64,000 nt of DNA from Planctomycetota bacterium (GTDB lineage Bacteria > Planctomycetota > UBA1135 > UBA2386). The stretch is taken from assembly GCA_965228735.1 (NCBI GenBank), contig OZ245838.1, positions 1,403,011-1,467,010 on the forward strand. The letters are read 5' to 3'. Shown here piece after piece: positions 45,879 to 61,569 of the stretch. The stretch's first letter is position 1. The number at the start of each line of letters is the position of its first letter. The notes beneath the pieces were generated by a model. It was not told where the DNA came from and searched no databases. It worked only from the letters and a program-made list of their open reading frames with translations. The translations under genes and the position numbers were made by a program.

Positions 45879-46550
45879 ATGTACCTACGACACGCCGCTA
45901 CCATTCTGTTCACCATCGCGCTCGGCGCGTGCGCTTCGGGGTCGCGCCTCGAAGAGGCTCCGAACCGCAAAGAGAACCTCACGACCTGGATCGAGAAGGT
46001 CCACATCGAGGCCGGCCGCTCGCGCGACTCGATCGCCGAGAGCTACGAACGCCTGCAGATGCTCGCCTCCGGCGAGTACCCGCAGGGCGACGCCGCGATG
46101 GCCTACGCCCAGTTCGTGCAGTCGATCGACATCGCCGAGACCCAGGCCACGCGCTTCCGCGAGGTCGTCGAACCGCTCGCGTCCGCGGCCGCCCCGGTCT
46201 TCGAGCAGTGGGCGCAGGACGTCCAGACGATCGGCAACGAACGCCTGCGCACGCGCGGCGAGCTCAGCATGACCGTCAGCAAGGAACGCTACGAAGCGGT
46301 CCTCGCGTCGGCGAACGATGCCCGCGAGCAGTTCAACGGCTTCGTGCAGGACCTCCGCGACCACGCGGCGTTCCTCGCGCACGACCTCAACCCGCGCGCG
46401 CTCGACGAGATCCAGGAAGACGTGAAGATGGTGCGCAACAACGCGGAGAAGCTCGACCAGGAGCTCGACCGCACGCTCACCGCGGCGCGCGCCTACGTCG
46501 ATCTCAACGCGCTGCCGGCGCAGGGTTCGCCCGCGTCGCCGAATCGCTGA
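45879..46550 (+). CDS. Helical lipoprotein, DUF2959-like
   Basis: Lipobox IALGA|C; LRDHAAFLAHDLNPRAL resembles the DUF2959 consensus (recalled, not searched). Confidence 0.6.
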   Translation: MYLRHAATILFTIALGACASGSRLEEAPNRKENLTTWIEKVHIEAGRSRDSIAESYERLQMLASGEYPQGDAAMAYAQFVQSIDIAETQATRFREVVEPLASAAAPVFEQWAQDVQTIGNERLRTRGELSMTVSKERYEAVLASANDAREQFNGFVQDLRDHAAFLAHDLNPRALDEIQEDVKMVRNNAEKLDQELDRTLTAARAYVDLNALPAQGSPASPNR

Positions 46551-46692: not shown

Positions 46693-48921
46693 GTGACCTG
46701 GACGCTGCTGAGCTGCCTGGCCGTCGTGCTGCTCCTGGGCCTCGCGGTCGCGTTCCAGCGCCGCGCCGACCTGCGGCGGCAACGCAGCGTCGTGGCCGAA
46801 CGCGCCGCGATGGCGCGGCGCAAGAACGACACCGCACCGCTCGTCGTGCCGGTCATCGACCTGCAGCGGTGTCTCGGGTGCGGCACGTGCGTGCGCTCGT
46901 GCCCCGAGGAGGGCGTGCTCGACCTCGTGCATGGCCAGGCGGCCGTGGTCAACGCCGCGCAATGCGTCGGTCATGCGCGCTGTGTCGCGGAATGTCCCGT
47001 CGGCGCGGTCACGCTCGGCACCGGCGACCTCGCGGAACGCGACGACGTGCCCGTCCTCGGCCCGGATCTCGCGGCCGTCGGCACGCCGGGGCTGTATCTG
47101 GTCGGTGAAATCACCGCGAAGGCGCTGATTCGACCGGCCACCGAGCAGGGCGCGCGCGTAGCGCGCACGATCGGGCAGGCGCGGGGCGAGACCATGCCGG
47201 GCGTGCACGATCTCGTCGTCATCGGCGCCGGCCCGGGCGGTCTGGCATGCGCGCTGGGGGCGATCGAACAGGACCTCGACCTCCTCGTGCTCGATCAAGA
47301 ACCGGTCATCGGCGGCACCGTCGCGAAGTATCCGCGCCGCAAGCTCGTGCTCACCGAGCCGATCGACCTGCCGCTGCACGGCCGCGTGCGGCAGAAGGAG
47401 TTCGAGAAAGAGCAGCTCATCGACCTTTGGCAGGATCTCGCGGCCGAGCACCAGGTGCCGTTCCGCGGCGGCGTGACGTTCGAACGCTGCGAACGGCTGG
47501 CCGACGGCACGTTCCGGATTCACACCGACGCCCCGGACCTCGCGGAGCTGCGCGCGCAGAACGTCGTGCTCGCGGTCGGACGTCGCGGCCAGCCGCGCCG
47601 CCTCGGCATCCCGGGCGAGGAGCTGCCGCACGTCGCGTACAGCCTGCTCGACGCGGGTGCGTTCGAGGACTGCGAGATCGTCGTCATCGGCGGCGGTGAC
47701 AGCGCGGTCGAGGCCGCGATGGCGCTCGCCGATCAGGCCGGCAACCGCGTCACGATCGTCTACCGCCAGGACCAGTTCTTCCGCATCCGCCGCAAGAACA
47801 AGGACCGCCTCGAGCAGCGACTCGAGCCCGGTCGTCTCGAGGTCGTGTTCCGGCACGAGCCGACGGAGATCGACGTCGACTTCGTCACGATCCGGAGCAA
47901 CGACGGCTCGGGGGTCGAACGGGAGATCCCGGCCGATCAGGTGTTCGTCCTCGTCGGCGGCGAACCGCCGTTCCCCGCGCTGCAGCAGAGCGGCGTGTCG
48001 TTCGATCATTCGACGCCGGCAGCGGCTGCGGCCGCGAACACGCAGCCGTCCGAAACCGCGGCCGAGCGGTCGCTCTTGCCCGTCCTCGGCGGCTCCGTCG
48101 TGCTCACGCTCGCGACGTTCGCGTTCGCGCTCTGGCACTTCGACTACTACTCCAAGGTCGCAGCCCTCCGGGCCGCCGATCCGAAGCATGCGTTGCTGCG
48201 GCCCGATCAGAGCCTCGGTCTCTGGTTCGGGATCGTGGCGGTGATCGCGCTGCTCGCCAACCTCGCCTACCTGCTGCGCCGTCGTCTCACGGTCACGTTC
48301 GGGTCGCTCACGGGCTGGATGGACGCGCACATCGTCACGGGCGTCGGCGCGCTGCTGCTCGCGGCGTTGCACGCCGCGATGGCGCCGCGGTCGACGCCGG
48401 GCGGGCATGCGTTCTGGGCCCTCGCGGCGCTCGTCGTCACGGGCGCGATTGGCCGCTGGTTCTACGCCTGGCTGCCGCGCGCGGCGAACGGCCGTGAGCT
48501 CGACCTCGAAGCGATCCGTGGCGACCTGCGCTCGCAACGGGGCGGCACGACGGGGTTCGCCGCCGCAGCGCAGCAGGAGACCGAGAAGCTGCTCGAGCGT
48601 CGCCAGTGGCGTTCGACGTTCGCGGGCCGCGCGCTGACGCTGATCGGCCTGTCGTGGGATCTCAACCGCACGCTCAACCGGCTGCGGCAACGAGCCCGGG
48701 CCGAGGGCATCGCCCCCACTGATCGCAATGCGACGTTCGCGACGATCCGCGCGGCCTACAAGACGTCGGTCGCCGCGGGCCATCTCGAGGACCTGCGCGC
48801 CGTGCTCGCGACCTGGCGCTGGCTGCACCGCTGGCTCGCGCTGCTGCTCATGCTGCTCATCGGCGTCCACGTGGTCATGGCGTGGCTGCACGGCGCGTTC
48901 TCGTTCGGAGGCTCCGCGTGA
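46693..48921 (+). CDS. Membrane oxidoreductase fusion: TM anchor, 2x[4Fe-4S] ferredoxin, FAD/NAD(P)H TrxR-like domain, di-heme-b-like TM domain
   Basis: CLGCGTCVRSCP and CVGHARCVAECP; VIGAGPGG; VIGGGDSAVEAA..YR; two TM helices each with a His pair 14 residues apart (DAH...LHA; WLH...VHV). Confidence 0.85.
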   Translation: MTWTLLSCLAVVLLLGLAVAFQRRADLRRQRSVVAERAAMARRKNDTAPLVVPVIDLQRCLGCGTCVRSCPEEGVLDLVHGQAAVVNAAQCVGHARCVAECPVGAVTLGTGDLAERDDVPVLGPDLAAVGTPGLYLVGEITAKALIRPATEQGARVARTIGQARGETMPGVHDLVVIGAGPGGLACALGAIEQDLDLLVLDQEPVIGGTVAKYPRRKLVLTEPIDLPLHGRVRQKEFEKEQLIDLWQDLAAEHQVPFRGGVTFERCERLADGTFRIHTDAPDLAELRAQNVVLAVGRRGQPRRLGIPGEELPHVAYSLLDAGAFEDCEIVVIGGGDSAVEAAMALADQAGNRVTIVYRQDQFFRIRRKNKDRLEQRLEPGRLEVVFRHEPTEIDVDFVTIRSNDGSGVEREIPADQVFVLVGGEPPFPALQQSGVSFDHSTPAAAAAANTQPSETAAERSLLPVLGGSVVLTLATFAFALWHFDYYSKVAALRAADPKHALLRPDQSLGLWFGIVAVIALLANLAYLLRRRLTVTFGSLTGWMDAHIVTGVGALLLAALHAAMAPRSTPGGHAFWALAALVVTGAIGRWFYAWLPRAANGRELDLEAIRGDLRSQRGGTTGFAAAAQQETEKLLERRQWRSTFAGRALTLIGLSWDLNRTLNRLRQRARAEGIAPTDRNATFATIRAAYKTSVAAGHLEDLRAVLATWRWLHRWLALLLMLLIGVHVVMAWLHGAFSFGGSA

Positions 48922-50990
48922 ACAAGAGCAAGGCGGGGCTCGGGGTGGGGATCGCGTCGCTCGTCGGCGTGCTGCTGCTCGCGTTCGTGAATCTCGACCG
49001 CGAGCCGCCGGGCCCGGTCGCGGCCGTGCACGCCGCACTGCCCGAACTCGAGGGCGGCAGCAACTGCGCGGCCTGCCACGGCGGCTGGTTCGGCGACATG
49101 CAGAAGGCGTGCATGGAGTGCCACGCGGACATCGCGGACCAGCTGGCGCGCGGCAGCGGCCTGCACGGCCGGCTCGACGCGGGCGCGGCGGCGAGTTGCT
49201 CGACCTGCCACGGCGACCACCACGGCCAGGAGTTCCGGCTCGTGAACGCTCTCGCGTTCGCCCAGGCCGGCGTGCCGGACGAGCAGCAGTTCGACCACAG
49301 GATGGTCGGCTTCGCGATGCACGGGCGGCACACCGAGCTCGACTGCACCGAGTGCCACGAGCACGCCGAGACCGCGGTCCTGGCGGCAGGCCAGAAGCGC
49401 TACCTCGGTCTCACGCAGAACTGTGCGACGTGCCACGAGGATCCGCACGGCGGTCAGATGCAGATGAACTGCACGACGTGCCACGGCCAGGATTCGTTCG
49501 ACGAGCACATCGTCCGCAACCACGACGCCCACCTCGAGCTCAGCGGCCCCCACGGCAACGCGACGTGCCGCGACTGTCATGCGACCGGCACGCGGCACGC
49601 CCTCGAACACATCCCGCAGGGTGGCATCGCGCGTGGGCGTGCGTGCGGCGACTGTCACGAGTCCCCGCACGATCCGACGTTCGTTTTGGCCAACGGCGCC
49701 GCGATGGAACTGTCGCCGAACCAGAGCTGCGAGGTCTGCCACTCGCTGGCGATTCCGCACTTCGACGACCCGGTCGTGACGGTGACCCCGGCGCAGCACG
49801 CCCACTCGGGCTTCTCGCTCGGGGAGCCCCATGCGGCCGTCCGCTGTGAGCAGTGCCACCCGGCCGGCCAGGACCGCGACGCCAGCGGCGACGATTGGGC
49901 GATCCGCCACCCGGGGCGCGATGCGAAGGACTGCCGCGCGTGTCACGAAGATCCGCACGGCGGCCAGTTCGACAACGCGCCGTTCGCCGCCGAGGGCTGC
50001 ATCAGCTGCCACGCGGAGACTCACTTCGGCCCGCACGAGTTCGATCTCGCGGCCCACGCCCGGACGACCTTCCCGCTCACGGGCAAGCACTCCGAGCTCG
50101 GCTGCGAGTCGTGCCACCCCGATCCGAAGGGCGACGAGCCCCGCCAGTTCGACGGCACACCCAACCGGTGCGAACAATGCCACGACGACGCCCACCACGG
50201 CGCGTTCGCGGCGCACCAGGACCGCTTCGCCGCCAATCCACGGGGCTCGTGCGCCGAGTGTCACGGCACCGAGCTGTTCCGCAACGTCGACCTCGCCGTG
50301 TTCCACCATGGCGAGCACGCCGGCTTCCAGCTCGACGGCGCCCACGATCAGATCCACTGCACCGACTGCCACGAACGCACCGCCACGCCCGACGCGCTCG
50401 GCCGCACGTTCGGCCGGATTCTCGACGGCGACCGCGAGTGGAACGGCTGCCGCACCTGCCACCAGGATCCGCACGACGGCAAGTTCGACTCCGCGACGCT
50501 GCCGCAGGAGATCGACGGCCGCCGCGGCTGCGTGCGATGCCACTCCACGGTCTCGTTCCGCCTGCTGCCGCACGGTTTCGAGCACGGCGCGTTCACGGGC
50601 TTCGAGCTCGCCGGCGCCCACGCCAAGATCGACTGCGCCGCGTGCCACCTGCCGCGCGACGAAGAGACGCCAGCCGGCCGCACGACGATGCCCGCCAACG
50701 GCACCAACTGCGGCGACTGCCACGAAGACTCGCACCAGAATCAATTCGAGCGCCTCGGGCGCACGGATTGCGCCCGGTGCCACAAGAGCCAGATCTCGTT
50801 CCGCCGGATCTCGTTCCGACACAACCTCGACTCGCGGTTCGCGCTCGGGGACGCGCACCAGAAGGTCGCGTGCAAGGAGTGTCACAAGGTGGAAGACATC
50901 CACGGCGTTCAGGCCGTTCGCTACAAGCCACTGCCGACGAAGTGCGTCGAGTGCCACGGCACGGACAACCCGCGAAGGAGACGACGATGA
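48918..50990 (+). CDS. Membrane-anchored multiheme cytochrome c, 23 CxxCH motifs (690 aa)
   Basis: 23 CxxCH counted by hand; N-terminal hydrophobic helix; GTG start overlaps the upstream TGA. Confidence 0.93.
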   Translation: MNKSKAGLGVGIASLVGVLLLAFVNLDREPPGPVAAVHAALPELEGGSNCAACHGGWFGDMQKACMECHADIADQLARGSGLHGRLDAGAAASCSTCHGDHHGQEFRLVNALAFAQAGVPDEQQFDHRMVGFAMHGRHTELDCTECHEHAETAVLAAGQKRYLGLTQNCATCHEDPHGGQMQMNCTTCHGQDSFDEHIVRNHDAHLELSGPHGNATCRDCHATGTRHALEHIPQGGIARGRACGDCHESPHDPTFVLANGAAMELSPNQSCEVCHSLAIPHFDDPVVTVTPAQHAHSGFSLGEPHAAVRCEQCHPAGQDRDASGDDWAIRHPGRDAKDCRACHEDPHGGQFDNAPFAAEGCISCHAETHFGPHEFDLAAHARTTFPLTGKHSELGCESCHPDPKGDEPRQFDGTPNRCEQCHDDAHHGAFAAHQDRFAANPRGSCAECHGTELFRNVDLAVFHHGEHAGFQLDGAHDQIHCTDCHERTATPDALGRTFGRILDGDREWNGCRTCHQDPHDGKFDSATLPQEIDGRRGCVRCHSTVSFRLLPHGFEHGAFTGFELAGAHAKIDCAACHLPRDEETPAGRTTMPANGTNCGDCHEDSHQNQFERLGRTDCARCHKSQISFRRISFRHNLDSRFALGDAHQKVACKECHKVEDIHGVQAVRYKPLPTKCVECHGTDNPRRRRR

Positions 50991-52723
50991 CCGGTCAGCC
51001 CGTCCACTCCTGCCCACCGCCTCATGCGCCGCTCGGTCGCATCGTCGGTATGGCACTCCTGCTCACGGCTCCTGCGCTCGCGCAGGTCCCGCGCTTCAAC
51101 AAGGTCGAGGTGCGCATCATCGCGACGCCACGCGCCGGGGTCGTGACGATCGACCGCGGCACGCGCGACCTCGTGCAGAAGGGCGACAAGGTCGTGCTGC
51201 TGCCGCGCGACGGCCGCGTCCTGCACGGCACGGTCAGCGCGACCGAGTCGCGCACGTCGACCGTCGAGCTCGTCAATCCGAACGACAAGGTCCGACCCGG
51301 GGTGCGCGGCGAGGTCCTCGTGCCGCGGATGCGCCGCCAGCAGCAGGACGAGCCCGCGAAACCGATCGAGCGACCCGCGGATCCGGTCGCCGAGCCACAG
51401 GAACCCGACAAGCCGGCGGACGAGCCCGAGAAGCCCGCAGACGGGGAACGGCGGTTCGGTGACGACAACTGGCGTCCCGGCATGCCGCTGCTCACGGGCG
51501 GCCGCCCGCTGCGCCCGAACGAGCGCGTCACCCGGACGACCGGTCAGGTCTACACCGCGGGCGACCTCACCCGCACGCTCGATACCTGGAACAACTCCTA
51601 CTTCCGGCTCGGCACGAACCTCGACGTCGAGAACCCCGCCGGCTTCGGTGGCGTGCTGCGCATCAACACCGAGTTCGCGCAGCTCACCGAGATCAACGAT
51701 CAGACCGACCCCGACCTGCGCGTCTACGAGCTGTCCTACGAGCTCGGCGGCAACCGCTACGAACCGACGCGCTGGACGTTCGGCCGGTACCTGTCGCGCG
51801 ACATGCCGGAGTTCGGCCTCGTCGACGGCATCGAGTGGAGCCATCGCACGGACACCGGCCAGCGGTTCGGCGTCAGCTTCGGCGCGCTGCCCGAACTCGA
51901 CGAAGACCTCGACACGGGGTCGGACCTGCAGTTCGCGGCCTATTGGCTGTGGCCCGACACGATCGCCGAACGGTTGACGTTCGGCCTCGGCTACCAGAAG
52001 ACGTGGCACCACCTGCGCGCCGACCGCGACCTCATCGTCGGCAAGATGCGCTACCTGCCGATCGATGGCTGGGACGTCGCCGCGACGACCTGGATCGACA
52101 TCTACTACGGCAGCGACACGAAGGGCGACGGCCCCGAGCTCACCCGCGCCCGCGCGCACGCGACGCGGCGTTACGACACGGGCGGCGGACTGCAGTTCAC
52201 CTACGATCACGAAGAACTCGTCGATCAGCGCCGCACGGAGTTCCTGCAGACCATCCAGCCCGCGACGCTGCTCAACGCCCACGCCGACCGTGTCACGATG
52301 CATGCCTGGTCGATGACGGACGGCGGCAGCCGGCTGTTCACGCGCATCACGGGTTTTCACGACCAGGCCCGCACGGGCGGGACGGCCGAAGCGGGCTTCC
52401 TCGCCGACGATTGGCTCATGGACGAGATGCGCAGCGGCCTCGCGGCATTCGTCGTGCACGGCCGTCACAGCACGGTCGCGGGCGGCCGGCTCGACCACAG
52501 CGGTGAGGCCTGGGGTGGCCGGCTCGACGCCCTGCTCGAGGTGTCGTTCGTTCACCACGAGAGCTTCAACAACGACGGCGACGATCTGATCCAGTACCGC
52601 CTCGGCGCGTACTGGACACGCGCGGTCGGTGACAACTGGTACCTTCTCAGCTACGGCGACTCGACCCTCTGGGACACCGAGTTCTCGATGAGCGCCGGCT
52701 TCTACCTCCAACGGACGTTCTGA
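50987..52723 (+). CDS. Outer-membrane beta-barrel protein (putative cytochrome-conduit porin) with N-terminal periplasmic domain and Pro-rich linker (578 aa)
   Basis: AAGGAG RBS and ATGA overlap; signal peptide (ALLLTAPALA|Q); amphipathic beta-strands; C-terminal beta-signal GFYLQRTF. Confidence 0.72.
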   Translation: MTGQPVHSCPPPHAPLGRIVGMALLLTAPALAQVPRFNKVEVRIIATPRAGVVTIDRGTRDLVQKGDKVVLLPRDGRVLHGTVSATESRTSTVELVNPNDKVRPGVRGEVLVPRMRRQQQDEPAKPIERPADPVAEPQEPDKPADEPEKPADGERRFGDDNWRPGMPLLTGGRPLRPNERVTRTTGQVYTAGDLTRTLDTWNNSYFRLGTNLDVENPAGFGGVLRINTEFAQLTEINDQTDPDLRVYELSYELGGNRYEPTRWTFGRYLSRDMPEFGLVDGIEWSHRTDTGQRFGVSFGALPELDEDLDTGSDLQFAAYWLWPDTIAERLTFGLGYQKTWHHLRADRDLIVGKMRYLPIDGWDVAATTWIDIYYGSDTKGDGPELTRARAHATRRYDTGGGLQFTYDHEELVDQRRTEFLQTIQPATLLNAHADRVTMHAWSMTDGGSRLFTRITGFHDQARTGGTAEAGFLADDWLMDEMRSGLAAFVVHGRHSTVAGGRLDHSGEAWGGRLDALLEVSFVHHESFNNDGDDLIQYRLGAYWTRAVGDNWYLLSYGDSTLWDTEFSMSAGFYLQRTF

Positions 52724-52733
52724 GGCATCCCCC

Positions 52734-53396
52734 ATGCGCACGAATCGACCAACCAATCGCTTCCGCCTCGGCCACGCGCTCGTGCTGGCCTGGATCGTCG
52801 CCGTCGTCGCCTGCACCGTGGTGTCGCCGCGGGAACGCGAACTCCACCGCTGGTGGGCCGGCTTCGGCATGGTCGTCAAGCACGACTCGTTCCCGGGCGA
52901 GTGTGGTGACTGCCACATCGGCGCCAACTGGAACGAGATCTCGGCCACGTTCGAGTTCGACCACGAGCGGGAGACCGGCGTGGCACTGACCGGCGCGCAC
53001 GCCCAGGCGCAGTGCCTGCGGTGCCACAACGATCGCGGCCCGGTCGCGACGTTCGCCGCGAAGGGGTGTGCCGGCTGCCACGAGGACGTGCACTACGGCG
53101 AGCTCGGCAAGGACTGCACGACGTGTCACAGCGACACGGTCTGGCGCGTCCCGAACGCGCGCGTCAACCACCTGCACGGCCGCTTCCCGCTCACGGGAGC
53201 GCACCTGCAGGTCGCCTGTCACCGCTGCCACGCCGGCGCCTGGGTCCGCAACTTCCGCCCGACGGATCCGACGTGCGAGAGCTGCCACTACGACGAGGGC
53301 GCCAACGTCAACAACCCACCGCACCTCAACCTCGGCTGGACCGACTGCGACCGCTGCCACATCCCGACCGGCTGGCGGCCCGCGGTCATCCGCTGA
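52734..53396 (+). CDS. Hepta-heme cytochrome c lipoprotein
   Basis: Lipobox-like IVAVVA|C; 7 CxxCH; same LTGAH..CxxCH repeat type as the 23-heme protein. Confidence 0.88.
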   Translation: MRTNRPTNRFRLGHALVLAWIVAVVACTVVSPRERELHRWWAGFGMVVKHDSFPGECGDCHIGANWNEISATFEFDHERETGVALTGAHAQAQCLRCHNDRGPVATFAAKGCAGCHEDVHYGELGKDCTTCHSDTVWRVPNARVNHLHGRFPLTGAHLQVACHRCHAGAWVRNFRPTDPTCESCHYDEGANVNNPPHLNLGWTDCDRCHIPTGWRPAVIR

Positions 53397-53540: not shown

Positions 53541-56342
53541 ATGAAGCAGACCTTGCACCGCCCATTGAGTCTGACCGCGCTCGCATTCGTGACCGCGGTC
53601 GGCTGGCTGTCGATCACGTCCTCGTGCGTCGAGGAAGCCGGTCGCGAGTCGTCGCTCGCGACGGCCGAGTCGTGCATGAGCTGTCACAACGGCTCCCTGC
53701 ACGATGACTACGCGGGCCCGGGTCTCGAGAACCCGCACCCGTTCCCCGGCGATGCGGAGGTGCTGACCTGCACCGCGTGTCACGGCGGCAACCCGAACGG
53801 TCGCGATGCGGCCTCGGCCCACGTGCCGCCGCCGCCGTCGATCGGCGACCGCGACTTCCAGGACCGCAACGCGCAGGCCTACTTCAACAAGCTGACGCTC
53901 ACCGGCATCGACAAGGTGCCGGATTACACCGTCGACGGTGTGACCTACACCGGCATCGACTACCTGCAGTTCCTCAACCCGGGCGACCTCCGCGTGACGG
54001 AAGCTGCGCGCGGCTGCGGCGAGTGCCACGGCGATCACAGCGCCAGCATGGCGCGCGCGCCGATCGGCCTGTCGATGGGCATCTTCTCGGGCGCCTCGTA
54101 CGCGAGCGGCCAGCTCAACCAGATCCCGGGCCACCAGGGCCTGTTCGAGGACACGGCCGCGGACCTCGCGTTCCGCGCGGTCACGGATCCGAGTCACGTC
54201 CACAGCGCGACCGAGGTCGGCAAGATCGGGCAACTCATCGAAGCGCCGGTCTGGGCGTCCCGGCAGGACCAGGGCCCCGACTTCCTGTTCCGCAACCAGG
54301 ACTTCGTCGTCGCCAATCTCGTCAACGACGTGAACGCCGACGGCTCGCTCGTCAACAACTCGCGGCTCGCGAAGCTCTACCAGGAGCAGGTCATGTTCAC
54401 CTGCGGTGACTGCCACGCCGGCAGCAGCGGTGCGAACAACCGCTACGGTGACTTCCGGCCGTCCGGCTGCGCGGCGTGCCACATGCCCTACAGCCTCGAC
54501 GGTCGCAGCCGCAGTCTCGACCCGAACGTCCCGAAGGACGAACCCGCGGACCCGGACGACATCGACGATCCGGAACGCGCCCACGTGCGCGCCCACCGGA
54601 TCGTCAACGTCAATCGAACGCTGAGCAACGGCGTGCAGGTCGGCGGCATCGACGACTACACCTGCGCCGGCTGCCACCAGGGCAGCAACCGCACGGTCAT
54701 GCAGTACTGGGGCATCCGCCTCGACCAGAACGAGGACGTGCGCCGCGGCTTCCAGTACCCGGCCAACCCCGTCGAGTTCCGGACGACGCGTTTCGACACG
54801 CGCCTGTTCGACCCGGAGGTCGACAACAACACGTTCAACGGCCGCAATCACCGCCAGTACCTGCTGTTCGAAGACTACGACGGCGACACGCGTGACGACA
54901 CGCCGGCCGACGTGCACTACGAAGCGGGCATGGGCTGTGTCGACTGCCACGGCGGCACCGACCTGCACGGCGAGGTCAAGACCGGCGGCGGCGCGATCGT
55001 CAGCCGCATGAGCCACGCGGTCGCGATCTCGTGCGAGACGTGCCACGGTTCGTCGACCGCGTACGCGGCGACGACCGTCGGCGAGAACTACCAGGGCTTC
55101 ACCGTGCCCCTCGCCGTCGACGAGAAGGGCGTCGCGTTGCGTCACGTCGAGCGCGACACCGACGGCAACTACTGGCTCACGAGCAAGCTCACGGGCAACC
55201 GCCACTTCATCCGCCAGACGATGGACGTCGTCGTCGACAACGGCAAGCTGAACCCGTTGACCAACGAACCGCTCTACTCGGCCAAGGCGTCGTTCGCCAT
55301 GGGCCGCGACGACGGCCTGGCATCGACGGGCCTCGGCCCGCAGCAGAACGGCGTGACGGCGACCGGCTTCGCCCACAGCGACAGCATGGACTGCGCGTCG
55401 TGCCACTCGGCGTGGACCAACACGTGCATCGGCTGCCACCTCGAGGGTGAGTACAACGAGGGCAACAACTTCAGCAACGTCACGGGCGAGCGGATCTCGT
55501 TCCGGGAACGCTTCGCGGAGTTCGTCTACCAGTCGCCGGTGAACTTCAGTCTCGGCGTCGGTCCGGACAACCGGATCACGAACACCGCGGCCAACACCAA
55601 GGTGTTCTTCCGCTACACGGACATCAACGGCGACCGGACCCCGGTGTTCGCGTTCAGTGACCGCAACGGGCAGGGCAGCAACACCGCCGCCAACCCGGCG
55701 CGGCCGCTGCCGTCGCTCGGGCACAACGCGCTCATGGCGCACTCGATCCGTGGTCGCGTGACCGCGAGCAACGAGGGGCCGCGCTACTGCGTGTCGTGCC
55801 ACCTCACCGACACGGCTCTCGCGAACCACCGGACGGCGTACGAGACGTTCCGCACGCAGCTGGCGACGAACGACTTCGCGAACATCGACTACGACACGTT
55901 GCGCACCCACATCGGGCTCAACCCGGGCAACCAGCTCAACTCGCCGTGGTTCGTGCACATGGCCGCCGGTCTCGGCACCGGTCTCTACCTGTTCGACGCC
56001 AACGGTGGCGCGCAGAACCCGATCGACGACAACGCCAACCGCTACGGCAGTGACGGCGTCGCCCCGCGCGACCAGTTCAACCCAGCCAACGTGGTCTACG
56101 ACCTCGATCGCGTCGTCGACGACACGAACGGCCGTTCGAACGGTTCGAGCAGCGTGCCCATGGATCAGCCGATCCTCGGCCCGCTGCGCCGCACGGGCGC
56201 AACCAACACGAACATGACGGGGCCGCTCGGCCTGAACCTCGCGAACCGGCTGGCCGACCCGAACACGGGCATCATCCTCAACGCGTGGATCAACGCGGAC
56301 GGCGTCGCAAACGGCTTCGCCGCGCAGATCATCGACCCGTAG
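53541..56342 (+). CDS. Large multiheme cytochrome c, probable lipoprotein, 11 CxxCH (933 aa)
   Basis: GGAGG upstream of ATG 53541; signal ending ITSS|C; 11 CxxCH counted by hand with long heme-free inserts. Confidence 0.88.
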   Translation: MKQTLHRPLSLTALAFVTAVGWLSITSSCVEEAGRESSLATAESCMSCHNGSLHDDYAGPGLENPHPFPGDAEVLTCTACHGGNPNGRDAASAHVPPPPSIGDRDFQDRNAQAYFNKLTLTGIDKVPDYTVDGVTYTGIDYLQFLNPGDLRVTEAARGCGECHGDHSASMARAPIGLSMGIFSGASYASGQLNQIPGHQGLFEDTAADLAFRAVTDPSHVHSATEVGKIGQLIEAPVWASRQDQGPDFLFRNQDFVVANLVNDVNADGSLVNNSRLAKLYQEQVMFTCGDCHAGSSGANNRYGDFRPSGCAACHMPYSLDGRSRSLDPNVPKDEPADPDDIDDPERAHVRAHRIVNVNRTLSNGVQVGGIDDYTCAGCHQGSNRTVMQYWGIRLDQNEDVRRGFQYPANPVEFRTTRFDTRLFDPEVDNNTFNGRNHRQYLLFEDYDGDTRDDTPADVHYEAGMGCVDCHGGTDLHGEVKTGGGAIVSRMSHAVAISCETCHGSSTAYAATTVGENYQGFTVPLAVDEKGVALRHVERDTDGNYWLTSKLTGNRHFIRQTMDVVVDNGKLNPLTNEPLYSAKASFAMGRDDGLASTGLGPQQNGVTATGFAHSDSMDCASCHSAWTNTCIGCHLEGEYNEGNNFSNVTGERISFRERFAEFVYQSPVNFSLGVGPDNRITNTAANTKVFFRYTDINGDRTPVFAFSDRNGQGSNTAANPARPLPSLGHNALMAHSIRGRVTASNEGPRYCVSCHLTDTALANHRTAYETFRTQLATNDFANIDYDTLRTHIGLNPGNQLNSPWFVHMAAGLGTGLYLFDANGGAQNPIDDNANRYGSDGVAPRDQFNPANVVYDLDRVVDDTNGRSNGSSSVPMDQPILGPLRRTGATNTNMTGPLGLNLANRLADPNTGIILNAWINADGVANGFAAQIIDP

Positions 56343-56355
56343 GCCGACGGCACTC

Positions 56356-59217
56356 TCAACGACCGCGCCCCGGCCCGTCGTCAGGCCGCGGTCCGTCCGG
56401 CCGTCGCTCCCCGCGCGACGGCGGCACCCGCGGCATGAGCTCCCGGATCGTGCTGCGGAATTCCTGCACCTTCGCGTCGAACGCGGCACTCGTTCGCCAA
56501 CGCCGGCCGCCGGGACCGCGCCGCGGGTCCGCTCGCCCGCCGCGGCCCTCTTCGCGGTCACCCCGGCCCCACGCGGAGAAGCCTCCCCAGCGCTCCGGCC
56601 GGCTCGCCCGGGCGCCGGCCTCGACGAGCGCCTCGACGGCCTCGCGCAGCTGCGCGAACGCGCGGTCGAGCATGGCATCGGCTTCCTGCGCCCGGTCTTG
56701 CTCGCGGAGCAGGTTGTCCAGCTCACGGATCGCGCCCACGGCGCGCATCGGGTGCGCCACGCCGGGCTCGGCCACGACTCGCCGCAACTCGCGCTCGGCC
56801 CGCGCCAGCAGTTTCGGACGCTCGGCCTCGCCCGCAGTCCGAGCCCGGTAGAGCAACTCGCTGCCGAGTTCGCCGGCAACCCGGGAACGCAGCGCGCGAT
56901 GATCGCGAATGTCGGGTCGGTCCTTCACGAGGCGAGCCGCGTGGCCAGCGGCCTCCTCGAGCAGGGCAAGCCGTTCCGCCCGCGGCAACACGCGGACCAG
57001 GTCGACCACCGTGTCGCAGAACTCGAGGCGGAACTGCTCCAGGTCGGGATCGGCAGTGACGATCTCGCGCAGGATCTGCAGGCCCGCCCGGGCGCTCTGC
57101 AGCCCCGTGTCGAGCGGCTGCAACTGCCCCGCGAGCAGCAGGCAGCGTGCCTCGAACGCGCGCACCTCCGGCTTGCCCCGCTCGGCCGCCGGCAGCGCCG
57201 CGAGTGTCGCCTGGGCGGCGTCGAGGTAGCCGAGCGCGCGTTGCAGTCGCTCCTGACGGCCACGGCGCCCGTCGCGGACTCCGTCCGGCGGCGCACCGGA
57301 CGGCCGCTCGCCAGAAGGCCGCTCGTCGGGCGGCCGCTCGCCGCGATCCCGCCGCCGACCATCGCCGCGCCCGCGCCGCGACAGGCGTTCCGTCCGGGCC
57401 AGTTCGTACTGCACCGTCGCACATTCGAACTGCAGCGCGACGGACTCGTCCCCGGTCCGCTCCCGTTCGGCCGTGAGCACCTGCAGGGCGAGCTGGAAGC
57501 GGCGCGCGGCCTCTTCGCGGTTGCGGCGCCGCATCTCGAGGTGCCCGTACTCGAGGTGGACCGCCGCGAGCTCGCGCGCGATGTCGCGGTCGGACACGAC
57601 CGAGTAGAGCTCGAGCGCCTCGTCGTAGGCTGCGGCGGCCTCCTCGAGGTTGCCGAGACGCTTGTGGATCACGCCGACCCGGCGATGGGCCCGCGCGGTC
57701 TCGAACCGCAGCGACTGGCTCGCCGCATTCTGAGCCGCGAAGTCGTCGTAGAAGGACAGCATCTCGAGCAGCAGCTGCAGGTCCTGGTCGCGAACGTTGC
57801 GCACCGCGACCACGTATTCCTCGCCGGTGTCCGGGTCGGCCTCGAACATCAACAGCGGGTCACGACCGACGAGCCCGTCGAACACGTCCTCGAACGCGGC
57901 CAGGGCGTGTCGCAGGTTGCCTTCCGCCCGCAACCGCTCTTGCTCGAGTTCCACGCCCGCCGTCTCGGCCCGCGTCAGCGCGTCGCTCGTGACGACGTAG
58001 GCCCCCCAGCCGATCCCTCCGGCGACGACGATCGCCGTGAGCGTCGCTGCGAGCAACCCGGCCATCGCGCGGTTCCGGCGACACCAACGCAGGACCTGCG
58101 CGACCGAACTCTGGCGCCGCGCGGCGATCGGGCGGTCCTCGAGGAACGCGACGAGGTCCTGCTCGAGTTCCTCCGCCGTGCCGTAGCGGTCCGCGGGGTC
58201 GCTCGCCGTCGCCTTGCCGATCACCGTCTCGAGGTCGCGCGGCACGTCCGCCACGAGCCTCGACACGGGCGTCGGTCGACCGCGCTGGATCGCGGCCATC
58301 AACTCGGAACGGGACTGCCCCGCGTAGGCCGGCCGCAACGTGAGCAATTCGTAGAGCGTGATCCCGAGCGCGTAGACCTCACTGCGCGCATCGTAGATCC
58401 CGGCGAACTGCTCCGGCGCCATGTACTGCATCGTCCCGACCAGGTCGCCCGACTGGGTCAGCCCCTCGGCCTCGAGCGCCTTGGCGAGACCGAAGTCGGT
58501 GACCCATACGTGCTCGTCTTCCCCGAGCAGCAGGTTCCCCGGTTTGATGTCACGGTGCAGCGTGCCGTGCTCGTGGGCGTAGTGCAGCGCCTCGGCGACC
58601 TGCGCGCCGATCCGCGCGACGAAGCGCGCACGATCCCGCCACGCCGCGCTGCCCTCCGGCGGGTGCTGCCCTGCGTCCGTGCGCCACGCGTCGAGCCCTG
58701 TCCCGCTGATGAACTGCATCGCGTACCAGTGGTAGCCGTCCGTCTCACCGCTGCCGAACACCGGCACGATGTTGCTGTGGTGCAGCTGCGCTGCGACCTG
58801 CGCCTCGCGCTGGAAGCGCATGAGCTGGTTGCCCGTCAGGAGCGACGCCTGTGGCAGCACCTTGAGCGCGACGCGTCGCGAAAGCGACTCCTGGAACGCC
58901 TCGAACACGACGCCCATGCCGCCGCGCCCGACCTCGGCGACGATGCGGAAGTCGCCGAGCCGGTGCATGTCCGGCAGCGCCACGCGCGCGAGCTGCCCGC
59001 CGGTCGACTCGCGGTCGCGCTTGACCTGCTCGAGCGCCTGCAGGGTCGGCAACAGGTCGAGCAGCGCCTCGCGCTGCTCGGGGTGAGCGGCGGCGAACGC
59101 GGGCACGTCGACGAACTCGCCGCTCCGCAGTCGCCTGGTGTACTCCTCGACGAGCAGATCGAGCGGATCGCGTTCGCTGCCTCTGCCGTCGGTCACGGCG
59201 TCGTCGTCCAGACTCAT
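56356..59217 (-). CDS. Ser/Thr protein kinase with TM helix and TPR-like C-terminus (953 aa)
   Basis: VGRGGMGVV, VALKVL, HRDIKPGN, DFGLAK, GTMQYMAPEQ; start ATG 59217. Confidence 0.95.
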   Translation of the reverse strand: MSLDDDAVTDGRGSERDPLDLLVEEYTRRLRSGEFVDVPAFAAAHPEQREALLDLLPTLQALEQVKRDRESTGGQLARVALPDMHRLGDFRIVAEVGRGGMGVVFEAFQESLSRRVALKVLPQASLLTGNQLMRFQREAQVAAQLHHSNIVPVFGSGETDGYHWYAMQFISGTGLDAWRTDAGQHPPEGSAAWRDRARFVARIGAQVAEALHYAHEHGTLHRDIKPGNLLLGEDEHVWVTDFGLAKALEAEGLTQSGDLVGTMQYMAPEQFAGIYDARSEVYALGITLYELLTLRPAYAGQSRSELMAAIQRGRPTPVSRLVADVPRDLETVIGKATASDPADRYGTAEELEQDLVAFLEDRPIAARRQSSVAQVLRWCRRNRAMAGLLAATLTAIVVAGGIGWGAYVVTSDALTRAETAGVELEQERLRAEGNLRHALAAFEDVFDGLVGRDPLLMFEADPDTGEEYVVAVRNVRDQDLQLLLEMLSFYDDFAAQNAASQSLRFETARAHRRVGVIHKRLGNLEEAAAAYDEALELYSVVSDRDIARELAAVHLEYGHLEMRRRNREEAARRFQLALQVLTAERERTGDESVALQFECATVQYELARTERLSRRGRGDGRRRDRGERPPDERPSGERPSGAPPDGVRDGRRGRQERLQRALGYLDAAQATLAALPAAERGKPEVRAFEARCLLLAGQLQPLDTGLQSARAGLQILREIVTADPDLEQFRLEFCDTVVDLVRVLPRAERLALLEEAAGHAARLVKDRPDIRDHRALRSRVAGELGSELLYRARTAGEAERPKLLARAERELRRVVAEPGVAHPMRAVGAIRELDNLLREQDRAQEADAMLDRAFAQLREAVEALVEAGARASRPERWGGFSAWGRGDREEGRGGRADPRRGPGGRRWRTSAAFDAKVQEFRSTIRELMPRVPPSRGERRPDGPRPDDGPGRGR

Positions 59218-59236
59218 CGCGCGCACCGCCTCATGA

Positions 59237-59830
59237 TCAACCGTCCGCGAGCTCGGCGAGCAGACCGCGCAGGCGCCCGAGTGCCCGCACGTAGCGATTA
59301 CTTGCCGCGTTCTCCTGGATACCCAGCACGTCGGCGGTCTCCTTGTTGGACAGCTCCTCGAAGTGCCGCAGAAGAAGCACCTCGCGGTCGATCTCGTCCA
59401 TGCTATCGAGCGCGGCCTCGATCTTTTGCCGCAGCTCCTCGCGCATCGCAGCACCGCTCGGGGACGTCGCGTGGCCGACGAAGAAGCCGCTGATCATCTG
59501 GCTCTGGGGCGACTGGACCTCGCGCCCCGCGGTGCGCATCTTGGCGCCGACGTGCTTGCGATGCAGATCGACCATCGTCTGCTGCGCGATCAGCCGCATC
59601 CACAGGAAGAACGGCTTGTCGTCGCCGCGGAACGCGCCGAGCCGCTTCTCCGCCTCGATGTAGGCCTCCTGCAACACGTCCTCGGGATCGATCCGCCCGA
59701 GCAGGCGCGGGTCGAGCCGGAATTGGATCATGCGCAGCAGCCGGTCCCTGACGCCGTCGAACAACGGAGCCAGGGCAGCGTCATCACCGGCGCGCAGCGT
59801 CGCTTCGAGTTCTGCATCGGAGTCTGGCAT
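59237..59830 (-). CDS. ECF sigma-70 factor of the planctomycete kinase-associated type
   Basis: DPEDVLQEAY (sigma2), FFLWMRLIAQQTMVDLHRKH, SPSGAAMREE, DREVLLLRHFEELSNKETADVLG (sigma4); 19 bp upstream of the kinase. Confidence 0.92.
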   Translation of the reverse strand: MPDSDAELEATLRAGDDAALAPLFDGVRDRLLRMIQFRLDPRLLGRIDPEDVLQEAYIEAEKRLGAFRGDDKPFFLWMRLIAQQTMVDLHRKHVGAKMRTAGREVQSPQSQMISGFFVGHATSPSGAAMREELRQKIEAALDSMDEIDREVLLLRHFEELSNKETADVLGIQENAASNRYVRALGRLRGLLAELADG

Positions 59831-60057
59831 CGCTGCGCGCACCATAGCCGATCGACGACCCTCCGAAAGACGCGCGAGGACCGCCAGCGCGTCCCTGCCA
59901 TCGCCGAGACGGCGGTGAGTCGCACTCAGAACGGACCGGATCGTGGGCATGACTACGATTGCGGCGGTAGAACGCCGGCGGGACATCCGAGTCCACAGCC
60001 AGAGCGGCGTTCTCGGGGCCCGAGACGCAATCGTGACGCGGACCGGGCCCGGGCGAC

Positions 60058-61569
60058 TCAGATCGCGCCGGCGACGAACCGGCGCAGCTCGTCCGTCGTC
60101 ACGGACTTGCCCGTGAACGACCGCACCTGCGACTTCGCCTGCTCGAGGAACATCTCGAGCCCGTGCACGACCCGCGCACCGACTGCTTTGGCGTCGCGCA
60201 GCAGGCGCGTCTCGTGCGGCCGATAGACCATGTCGAAGACCACGGTGCCGGGCTCCGGCACCCAGTCGGGCAGCGGCCGCTCGTCCGGGACGCGATCTGC
60301 CCCCGCGCTGCCGAGCGGCGTCGCGTTGACGACGACGCTGGGCCGCAGGCCGTCGGGCAACCGCGTGGACAGACTGCCGAGCCGGATGCCGTGGCGTTCG
60401 GCGAACGCGCGCACCCCGTCGATCGAACGCCCGAGGATCGTGACCTCGAAGCCGAGTTCGAGCAACGCGAAGGCGCCGGCGCGCGCGGCACCACCGGCGC
60501 CGAGCACCACGGCCGCGGGTTTCGCTGCCCCCGCGCCGGCCGACCCGCCAGGTCGTGAAACGACTTCGGCGAGAGCGCGCTGCACGCCCGCGACATCCGT
60601 GTTGTGACCCTCCCACCCTGCACCGTCGTCGACGGCCACGAGCGTGTTCACGACCTCGACCGCGGCGGCTTCTTCAGACCACCGCGCGCACCGCTCCGCC
60701 ATCGCGGCCTTGTGCGGCGCCGTCACCGACAGTCCGCCGACCCGGCCCGGCGGCAGCATGTCGAGGACGGCGTCGGGTCGCGAGGTCTCGAACGGCAGGT
60801 AGATCGCGTCCACCCCGAGCCGGCGGAACGCGCGGTTGTGGACCCATGGCCCGAGCGACTGCAGCGCGGGGTTGCCGAGCAGGCCGAAGATCCGCGTTCC
60901 GGCGCCGATCGTCTGCGCGCGGTAGAGGCCTTTCAGCAACGCGACGGGCAGCTGCCCGACCGCGGTCTCGGCGCCGCCCTCGAGACTGCCGTACACGAAC
61001 GGCGCGCCGTGCGCGAGCGCGAGCAGGCGCGTCGGCCAGGCGGTGCGTCCCATCGCGAACGCCACGGTCGGCGTCGCTGCCTGATCGATCGTTCGCAACA
61101 GCTCGAAGACCGGGGCGGCGTCAGCCAGGTCGTGCGCCGTCACGACGATCTTGGCGACCGCGCCCGGCACTTCGACGAGGCGCGCGTGGATCGCGTCGAG
61201 CTCGCGCGGCACGCCGGTGAAGCTGTGGAACGACCGCACGATGCGACGCAGACCGGTGCGGCCGGCCGGCGGCATCCAGCGATCGTCGATGTCGAGGTCG
61301 ACGCCTTCGGCGCCGGCGATCAGCGCCGCGGTCAGGAGCTCGCGCCGTTCACCGAGCGTGCCACGGAAGTGGCCGCCGTTCTCGGGCGTGTGGCACGTGA
61401 CGAGCACCGGCAGCCGCACCGCCGCGACCGCGGCCGCGACGTCCTCGTCGCTCGGCCAACGATCGAGCCGCAGCTCCAGCCAGTCCGCGCCGGCCATCGC
61501 GGCCGTCGCCCCGGCCCGCGCGACCTGCGCGACCGACTCGGCGAAGACGCTGGCGATGATGTCTGGCAT
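60058..61569 (-). CDS. aroE: Bifunctional type I 3-dehydroquinate dehydratase / shikimate dehydrogenase (AroD-AroE fusion)
   Basis: N-terminal WLELRLD, SFHSF, AFAMG; C-terminal SVTAPHK, VNT, NTD, LGAGGAA, NATPLG, DMVY, GLEMFLEQA. Confidence 0.92.
   Translation of the reverse strand: MPDIIASVFAESVAQVARAGATAAMAGADWLELRLDRWPSDEDVAAAVAAVRLPVLVTCHTPENGGHFRGTLGERRELLTAALIAGAEGVDLDIDDRWMPPAGRTGLRRIVRSFHSFTGVPRELDAIHARLVEVPGAVAKIVVTAHDLADAAPVFELLRTIDQAATPTVAFAMGRTAWPTRLLALAHGAPFVYGSLEGGAETAVGQLPVALLKGLYRAQTIGAGTRIFGLLGNPALQSLGPWVHNRAFRRLGVDAIYLPFETSRPDAVLDMLPPGRVGGLSVTAPHKAAMAERCARWSEEAAAVEVVNTLVAVDDGAGWEGHNTDVAGVQRALAEVVSRPGGSAGAGAAKPAAVVLGAGGAARAGAFALLELGFEVTILGRSIDGVRAFAERHGIRLGSLSTRLPDGLRPSVVVNATPLGSAGADRVPDERPLPDWVPEPGTVVFDMVYRPHETRLLRDAKAVGARVVHGLEMFLEQAKSQVRSFTGKSVTTDELRRFVAGAI

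Follow-up and report, generated by a model that had tools for sequence, protein, structure and literature searches.

A putatively membrane-anchored 23-heme cytochrome c of tandem tri-heme units and stepwise variation of heme number in its Planctomycetota family

Cytochromes that string many hemes along a single polypeptide have been described in Geobacter, where GSU1996 is composed of four domains of three hemes each, one of the three being His-Met ligated, and has its hemes in a linear arrangement (PMC10138318). The title of Pokkuluri et al. 2011, as cited in PMC10138318, puts its size at 12 hemes in 12 nm, and its sisters GSU0592 and GSU2210 carry 12 and 27 hemes, respectively (PMC10138318). 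Here we describe a gene coding for a 23-heme cytochrome c, called protein B in what follows, that lies in a stretch of 64,000 nucleotides from the genome of a Planctomycetota bacterium (assembly GCA_965228735.1, contig OZ245838.1, positions 1,403,011 to 1,467,010). This whole stretch is referred to as the window, and positions given below are counted from its first letter. Six genes that point in the same direction (U, A, B, C, D and E) make up the locus, gene B being the third of them, and its partners include a putative inner-membrane redox protein (A), a predicted outer-membrane barrel (C) and two lipoprotein cytochromes (D and E).

The tandem tri-heme nanowire is a known kind of protein from Geobacter, and protein B shares with GSU1996 the organization of one polypeptide into tandem units of about 70-90 amino acids with three CxxCH motifs each, a very low number of amino acids per heme and a heme content built in multiples of three. 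A Pfam search placed protein B well above the gathering score of PF14522, Cytochrome_C7 (94.7 bits against 24.8, in 6 stretches, E 2.9e-27), and cytochrome c3 models of Pfam match it as well. When the profile of its family was compared with the PDB, the best match was GSU1996 itself (3ov0, E 6e-8), followed at lower scores by OcwA, MtrF, MtrA and NrfB. The differences are nevertheless substantial. Unlike GSU1996 with its one His-Met heme per domain, protein B apparently has bis-His hemes throughout; its third distal His follows the second CxxCH; it has an extra head of three hemes and, as predicted, a membrane anchor at its N-terminus; and its gene shares an operon with those for a predicted outer-membrane barrel and a putative redox protein of the inner membrane. 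Because it also falls below the cut-off of the NCBIfam model TIGR04257, nanowire_3heme (27.7 bits against 40), in addition to lacking the His-Met heme, having the third His shifted and carrying a membrane helix, protein B is, as judged from its sequence, not a strict member of the GSU1996 family of c7-type polymers.

The logic of the operon resembles that of the PCC3 clusters, which were predicted in Alpha-, Beta- and Gammaproteobacteria. In these putative clusters, a periplasmic cytochrome with a median of 21 hemes and few amino acids per heme was proposed to span the gap between the membranes, the outer cytochrome has a median of 34 hemes, and the inner-membrane protein, of about 300 amino acids, has five transmembrane helices and two W-x3-H-x13-H motifs (He et al. 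2017, PMC5566968). The likeness, which is one of description, is that one cluster combines a porin-like barrel and an inner-membrane protein with multiheme cytochromes, both outer and periplasmic, the latter having many hemes, and protein A also carries both W-x3-H-x13-H motifs. In contrast to PCC3, the membrane domain of A is the C-terminal part of a 742-amino acid flavo-FeS NAD(P)H fusion, with a loop of about 100 residues before the last helix, and the outer cytochromes D and E have only 7 and 11 hemes against the median of 34. Proteobacterial matches to protein B in our genome scan were weak and generic, and consisted of 9-heme proteins only.

MtrA carries ten hemes in about 8 nm and is not known to span the periplasm, which is bridged by soluble carriers. 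Within the MtrCAB complex (PDB 6r2q), it provides a parallel to the outer end of the locus, as it forms a bis-His heme chain in an outer-membrane barrel and hands electrons to a surface lipoprotein cytochrome; it differs from protein B in having 10 hemes and no membrane anchor. Residues 510-681 of protein B show weak similarity to the DmsE model, and similarity to 6r2q_A is weak as well. Against TIGR03508, the MtrA/DmsE decaheme model, protein B reaches 46.7 bits for a cut-off of 192.2 and, with 23 hemes instead of ten, it is not a member of that family.

Other described systems were considered and set aside. The PCC4 clusters, reported in Planctomycetes (He et al. 2017), have cytochromes with 4, 5 and 10 hemes and no outer cytochrome; the 26-heme cytochrome of Desulfuromonadales and SEEP-SRB1 (PMC5539420) has no transmembrane helix and belongs to a different operon, with a beta-propeller protein and a peptidyl-prolyl isomerase; and the periplasmic cytochromes of the Verrucomicrobia porin-cytochrome clusters (PMC5615132) are 8-heme proteins. 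In the literature searched, for which journal coverage was incomplete, we found no description of this large anchored and all-bis-His family of Planctomycetota, of fixed ends combined with a centre varying in three-heme steps, or of the partnership with a flavo-FeS/di-heme-b protein and a 22-strand barrel.

Tri-heme units, heme ligands and putative membrane anchor of protein B

Protein B is encoded by one long open reading frame (ORF) on the plus strand, which is open from 48882 and closes with the stop codon at 50988-50990. The GTG at 48918 is a better start than the opening at 48882, because GGAGG lies 7 nt upstream of it and because it overlaps the stop codon of gene A as GTGA; the residue at position 1 is Met in 80% of the aligned homologs. 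Examination of the product revealed 23 CxxCH motifs, which contain all 46 Cys of the protein, along with 65 His and 8 Met, and a motif scan of the 690 amino acids found none of the variants CxxxCH, CxxxxCH and CxxCK. Each heme is thus allotted about 30 amino acids. From the N-terminus, a transmembrane helix is followed by three hemes, six tri-heme units (R1 to R6) and one final two-heme unit (R7), their boundaries being given in Table 1. The heme layout is the one that the original prediction had drawn from the repeated pattern [F-x-L-x-G-x-H..CxxCH][CxxCH-x-(D/S)-x-H][CxxCH], and both the count and the arrangement were recovered here.

Pairwise identity among the units ranges from 25 to 41%. 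Their similarity was compared with that of shuffled units in which the motif Cys and His were held fixed and the remainder was permuted (200 shuffles for each of 21 unit pairs). Real scores exceeded those of the shuffles with a mean z of 4.5, and for 12 of the 21 pairs none of the 200 shuffles reached the real score. Since real units outscore shuffles that keep the motifs, the repeat is a duplicated domain and more than a recurrence of CxxCH. The 7-heme lipoprotein D had been said to use the same unit, and it indeed aligns with protein B over two consecutive units with 37% identity (E 5e-14). At its C-terminus (50958-50987), protein B ends in a conserved poly-Arg stretch, ..NPRRRRR, for which the family consensus is RRRRR.

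The ligands of the hemes were examined in an alignment of 81 homologs with 46-63% identity to protein B. Exactly 23 His outside the motifs are invariant: 3 in the N-terminal module, 3 in every full unit and 2 in the last unit. As this number equals that of the hemes, all 23 hemes of protein B are probably bis-His, which agrees with the earlier suggestion that each repeat carries spare His suited to such ligation. Conserved Met occur only at residues 61, 134 and 181; none of them is conserved once per unit or within the repeats as a per-unit ligand. In each unit, the third distal His is found in the sequence CxxCH-x-D-x-H. On the simplest reading, every unit provides its own three distal His, which makes the units self-contained.

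The N-terminal 26 residues contain neither an AxA cleavage site nor a lipobox Cys. Their hydrophobic helix is followed by a conserved R-x-SPGP-x-S-x-VH sequence, and the whole arrangement is kept in every full-length homolog examined. This helix is read as an uncleaved signal anchor, which would leave the N-terminus in the cytoplasm. Because the first invariant His occurs about 12 residues past the helix, the first heme should be near the membrane surface.

Heme number across the family

Two protein searches returned 2090 and 2774 homologs of protein B. Among the 120 closest (45-63% identity, 653-709 amino acids), all but one have exactly 23 motifs, and the same number was found in 31 of the 35 complete loci of two genome scans. 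The wider family was sampled through the best 150 representatives of clusters at 50% identity, 119 of which looked full-length. Their heme counts fall on 20 (10 proteins), 23 (38), 26 (50), 29 (3) and 32 (1), so that 102 of the 119 follow steps of three. The idea of an extensible protein therefore stands for the wider family, in which variation of repeat number among homologs takes the form of whole central units gained or lost, and not for the near clade, which is practically fixed at 23.

In an alignment of examples, the first 10 and the last 6 heme positions were present throughout, and only the centre gained or lost hemes. A mapping of the single units showed that the R4 type is absent from the 20-heme forms and that, between R4 and R6, the 26- and 29-heme forms contain additional units of R5- or R3-like type. 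These extra units are closer to their neighbours than to any other unit, which points to an origin by tandem duplication. A FastTree run based on the conserved ends only, with 118 proteins, gave at least 34 changes of heme number, a figure that is rough as an exact count; well-supported branches force 12-13 changes between 23 and 26 hemes. Judging from this tree, heme number changed many times independently in the protein B family.

More distant relatives with cleaved signal peptides have 36-94 hemes at a very regular spacing of 32/16/25. The giants P0263 (2321 amino acids, 94 hemes) and P0325 (2005 amino acids, 81 hemes) comprise some 27-31 copies of the tri-heme unit, with cleavable signal peptides, about 25 amino acids per heme and an almost perfect 32/16/25 regularity. 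These two proteins may be extracellular wires.

A second, paralogous operon, A'-B'-C'-D', is present in many relatives. Its B' mostly has 26 hemes, its D', a lipoprotein of greater length, has 13-38 hemes and a D-like start (..GPVVPHD.FP.DC.LCH), and no E-like gene belongs to it. Ten genomes were checked for this second operon (loci L054-L063, in genomes G240, G358, G004, G071, G119, G256, G389, G397, G157 and G371). The B paralogs have 23 and 26 hemes in six of these genomes, 23 and 20 in one, 23 and 23 in two and 26 and 26 in one, each paralog being part of its own operon copy. The A'-B'-C'-D' operon is absent from the genome to which the window belongs, where only the 23-heme operon is found. 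One cell has one envelope and yet holds B paralogs of different heme number, so heme number follows the type of operon and not the organism. The proposal that the length of the wire is matched to the width of the periplasm is not supported in its simple one-to-one form, in view of the six genomes with 23- and 26-heme paralogs and the one with 23 and 20. A role for the length of protein B is still compatible with these data, the ends being conserved as if for docking and the spacer alone varying.

The geometry of protein B was approached through a structural model and by comparison. Its AlphaFold2 (AF2) model has a mean predicted local distance difference test score (pLDDT) of 84.1 and a predicted template modelling score (pTM) of 0.47, which fits locally well-defined domains that do not form one globule. 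A low ratio of amino acids to hemes has been regarded as typical of cytochromes that resemble wires (He et al. 2017, PMC5566968). A linear nanowire, or serial chain, is plausible for protein B on such indirect arguments: the ratio of about 30 amino acids per heme, the self-contained units, the linear arrangement of GSU1996 and the high local combined with low global confidence of the model. Moreover, whole-unit insertions and deletions have been tolerated repeatedly, which fits a serial and not an interlocked arrangement. Scaled from GSU1996 and MtrA, the length of a 23-heme chain can be estimated at about 18-23 nm, with 2.5-3 nm for each added unit, which would be roughly of the order of a Gram-negative periplasm.

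The operon and its distribution

The overlaps of start and stop codons between A and B (GTGA) and between B and C (ATGA) suggest that the three proteins are translated as a coupled set. Protein A begins with a transmembrane helix, which is followed by a ferredoxin domain for two [4Fe-4S] clusters, a Pyr_redox domain for flavin adenine dinucleotide (FAD) and NAD(P)H, and the C-terminal membrane domain. The two W-x3-H-x13-H motifs, at residues 542-560 (48316-48372) and 708-726 (48814-48870), are on separate predicted transmembrane helices, and the loop between the last two helices is rich in Arg. Some fragments homologous to this membrane domain have precomputed Pfam hits to DUF4405 or cytochrome b561. 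With the membrane domain alone as query, no free-standing proteobacterial relatives were found, the matches being almost only fragments of the same fusion. The pair of W-x3-H-x13-H motifs was described for the inner-membrane proteins of PCC3 and PCC4 and compared to the di-heme-b domain of ferric reductase and NADPH oxidase (He et al. 2017, PMC5566968). By analogy, the membrane domain of A is proposed to be of the di-heme-b type, with two b-type hemes carried by these helices.

Protein C starts with a signal peptide ending in ALA before Q. Residues 37-113 form a small beta domain, which a linker connects to a 22-strand beta-barrel at 183-577, and the last residue is Phe. The AF2 model of C has a pLDDT of 84 and a pTM of 0.67, the linker being of low confidence, and a Foldseek search with this model matched ushers, TonB-dependent receptors and porins. 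No match above cut-off was obtained in Pfam or NCBIfam. As modelled, C is a large outer-membrane barrel outside the described families. The linker (51344-51511) is acidic and rich in Pro and Glu, and is thus opposite in charge to the poly-Arg tail of protein B; the two could be a docking pair.

The hemes of D are laid out as 1 + 3 + 3, and its one further Cys is that of the lipobox. Protein E, with about 85 amino acids per heme, weakly matches the cytochrome ExtM, from the operon for selenite/tellurite reduction (55 bits, cut-off 800), as well as domains II/IV of MtrC/MtrF; it may be the terminal reductase. Elsewhere in the same genome (G000:C1:790036-792293), genes coding for CcsB (ResB) and CcsA are adjacent and represent the System II pathway of cytochrome c maturation. 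Just downstream of the operon, on the minus strand (56356-60616), are encoded a 1032-amino acid Ser/Thr protein kinase with tetratricopeptide-like repeats and a sigma factor of the extracytoplasmic function type.

Table 1. Positions in the window of the six genes and of the parts of protein B.
Feature	Position	Strand	Description
Gene U	45879..46550	+	Heme-free DUF2959 lipoprotein (DUF2959 E 5e-19), directly upstream of A
Gene A	46693..48921	+	742 amino acids, flavo-FeS protein with C-terminal membrane domain
Gene B	48918..50990	+	690 amino acids, 23-heme cytochrome c (ORF and motif count, Pfam Cytochrome_C7)
B, N-terminus	48918..48995	+	Residues 1-26; short basic stretch, then hydrophobic helix of about 22 residues (AF2 helix at 3-26)
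B, N-terminal three-heme module	48996..49277	+	CxxCH at residues 50, 65 and 94; invariant His 38, 83 and 101
B, unit R1	49278..49499	+	Tri-heme, residues 121-194
B, unit R2	49500..49778	+	Tri-heme, residues 195-287
B, unit R3	49779..50036	+	Tri-heme, residues 288-373
B, unit R4	50037..50291	+	Tri-heme, residues 374-458; type absent from 20-heme relatives
B, unit R5	50292..50567	+	Tri-heme, residues 459-550; type apparently tandem-duplicated in 26-/29-heme relatives
B, unit R6	50568..50804	+	Tri-heme, residues 551-629
B, unit R7 and tail	50805..50987	+	Terminal two-heme unit and conserved poly-Arg tail, residues 630-690
Gene C	50987..52723	+	578 amino acids, predicted outer-membrane barrel; start overlaps stop of B as ATGA
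Gene D	52734..53396	+	220 amino acids, 7-heme lipoprotein with the tri-heme unit of B
Gene E	53541..56342	+	About 930 amino acids, 11-heme lipoprotein, lipobox ITSSC

Of the 38 related Planctomycetota loci examined, 36 have these genes in the order A-B-C(-D-E), and no C homolog is seen in the other two (L052 and L053). Gene U is syntenic upstream of A in four of the six related loci whose sequence reaches that far. A homolog of protein B was found in 46 of 401 sampled Planctomycetota genomes (about 11%) and in 42 of 288 genera, and the public names of these proteins are only 'cytochrome c3 family protein' or 'hypothetical protein'. Engelhardtia mirabilis, which is in culture, is one of the carriers. 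More distant matches in the genomes of Sedimenticola, Chromatiales, Thiodiazotropha, Calditrichales and Verrucomicrobiota were set aside as generic proteins of 9 to 11 hemes that are not accompanied by the operon. Additionally, a locus of Gemmatimonadota contains a 21-heme ORF inside a cluster rich in multiheme genes.

Proposed electron conduit and alternative readings

Protein B is probably a membrane-anchored wire of 23 bis-His hemes that spans the periplasm within an outward electron conduit. In the scheme that we propose, A would take electrons from NAD(P)H via FAD and two [4Fe-4S] clusters and carry them across the inner membrane via the two b-type hemes on its W-x3-H-x13-H helices. The first hemes of B, about 12-25 residues from its membrane helix, would receive these electrons from A, and the 23 hemes would relay them across the periplasm. 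At the far end, the conserved C-terminal units of B would dock at or inside the 22-strand barrel of C, and the lipoproteins D and E would hand the electrons to an extracellular acceptor. The ends of B would then be conserved adaptors and its centre a spacer in which whole units are duplicated in tandem or lost; the conservation of both ends while the centre varies suggests that each of them docks to a partner.

Several points weigh against this conduit. Where 23- and 26-heme paralogs share one cell and span the same gap, at least one of them would have to bend or to reach in more or less deeply than the other. AF2 models no hemes, and a Foldseek comparison of the protein B model with the PDB gave two meaningless matches (E about 10), although such a search tells little about multiheme proteins, in which secondary structure is too scarce. 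Only gene order and topology point to contacts of A with B and of B with C. The lipoproteins D and E might be oriented towards the periplasm rather than the cell surface, and an outward export of electrons driven by NAD(P)H would dissipate the membrane potential.

In another reading, B would stop short of the outer membrane and serve as a membrane-tethered periplasmic electron store (a capacitor) or distribution hub, from which diffusing partners take electrons. The presence of 23- and 26-heme paralogs in one genome is easier to explain when no exact span is needed, and GSU1996, GSU0592 and GSU2210 of Geobacter are periplasmic and were proposed as capacitors (PMC10138318). Such a store is nonetheless unlikely, as strict synteny and overlapping start and stop codons tie B to the outer-membrane barrel C, the operon encodes no soluble small cytochrome, and the restriction of variation to the centre, between two conserved ends, suggests docking at both. 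The same architecture could also work inward, bringing electrons from extracellular Fe(II), Mn(II), reduced humics or a partner cell to the inner-membrane protein; bis-His heme chains are reversible in principle, and PCC3/PCC4 clusters with the same W-x3-H-x13-H signature were proposed for inward flow in iron oxidisers (He et al. 2017, PMC5566968). This direction appears unlikely as well, given that A ends in a cytoplasmic FAD/NAD(P)H module with two [4Fe-4S] clusters, that reduction of NAD(P)+ by electrons at the level of Fe(II) is uphill and that negative charge would move inward against the membrane potential. Finally, the weak sequence matches of B to NrfA and NrfB (E 0.001-0.005) would accord with a compact or catalytic multiheme enzyme, comparable to hydroxylamine oxidoreductase or the octaheme reductases. 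We regard this as highly improbable: the second His conserved for every heme leaves no open or unusual coordination site apparent, variant motifs such as CxxCK are lacking, about 30 amino acids per heme leave no space for a catalytic domain, and insertions and deletions of whole units have been tolerated time and again.

The outward conduit can be put in a more specific form, which we advance tentatively as a possibility. Protein B might hard-wire the inner membrane, beside the NADPH oxidase (NOX)-like NAD(P)H/FAD/FeS/di-heme-b protein A, to the pore by plugging into the 22-strand barrel, and its family might constitute wires of set length, from 20 to 32 hemes in steps of about 2.5-3 nm, generated by central duplication between fixed docking ends. 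If this were true, neither a diffusing periplasmic carrier nor a quinone step would be needed. To our knowledge, the known systems of extracellular electron transfer cross the periplasm by diffusing carriers, and we know of no reputation of Planctomycetota for metal respiration. An anchored cytochrome long enough for the outer membrane would solve the task differently, as an unbroken wire that leads from the cytoplasmic face to the surface of the cell.

Even if protein B is only a tethered electron store, it represents a large uncharacterised family. With its fixed ends and a centre built of three-heme units, this family constitutes a natural experiment on the relation of chain length to envelope geometry and electron-transfer rate, and it supplies modules for the engineering of protein wires of defined length.

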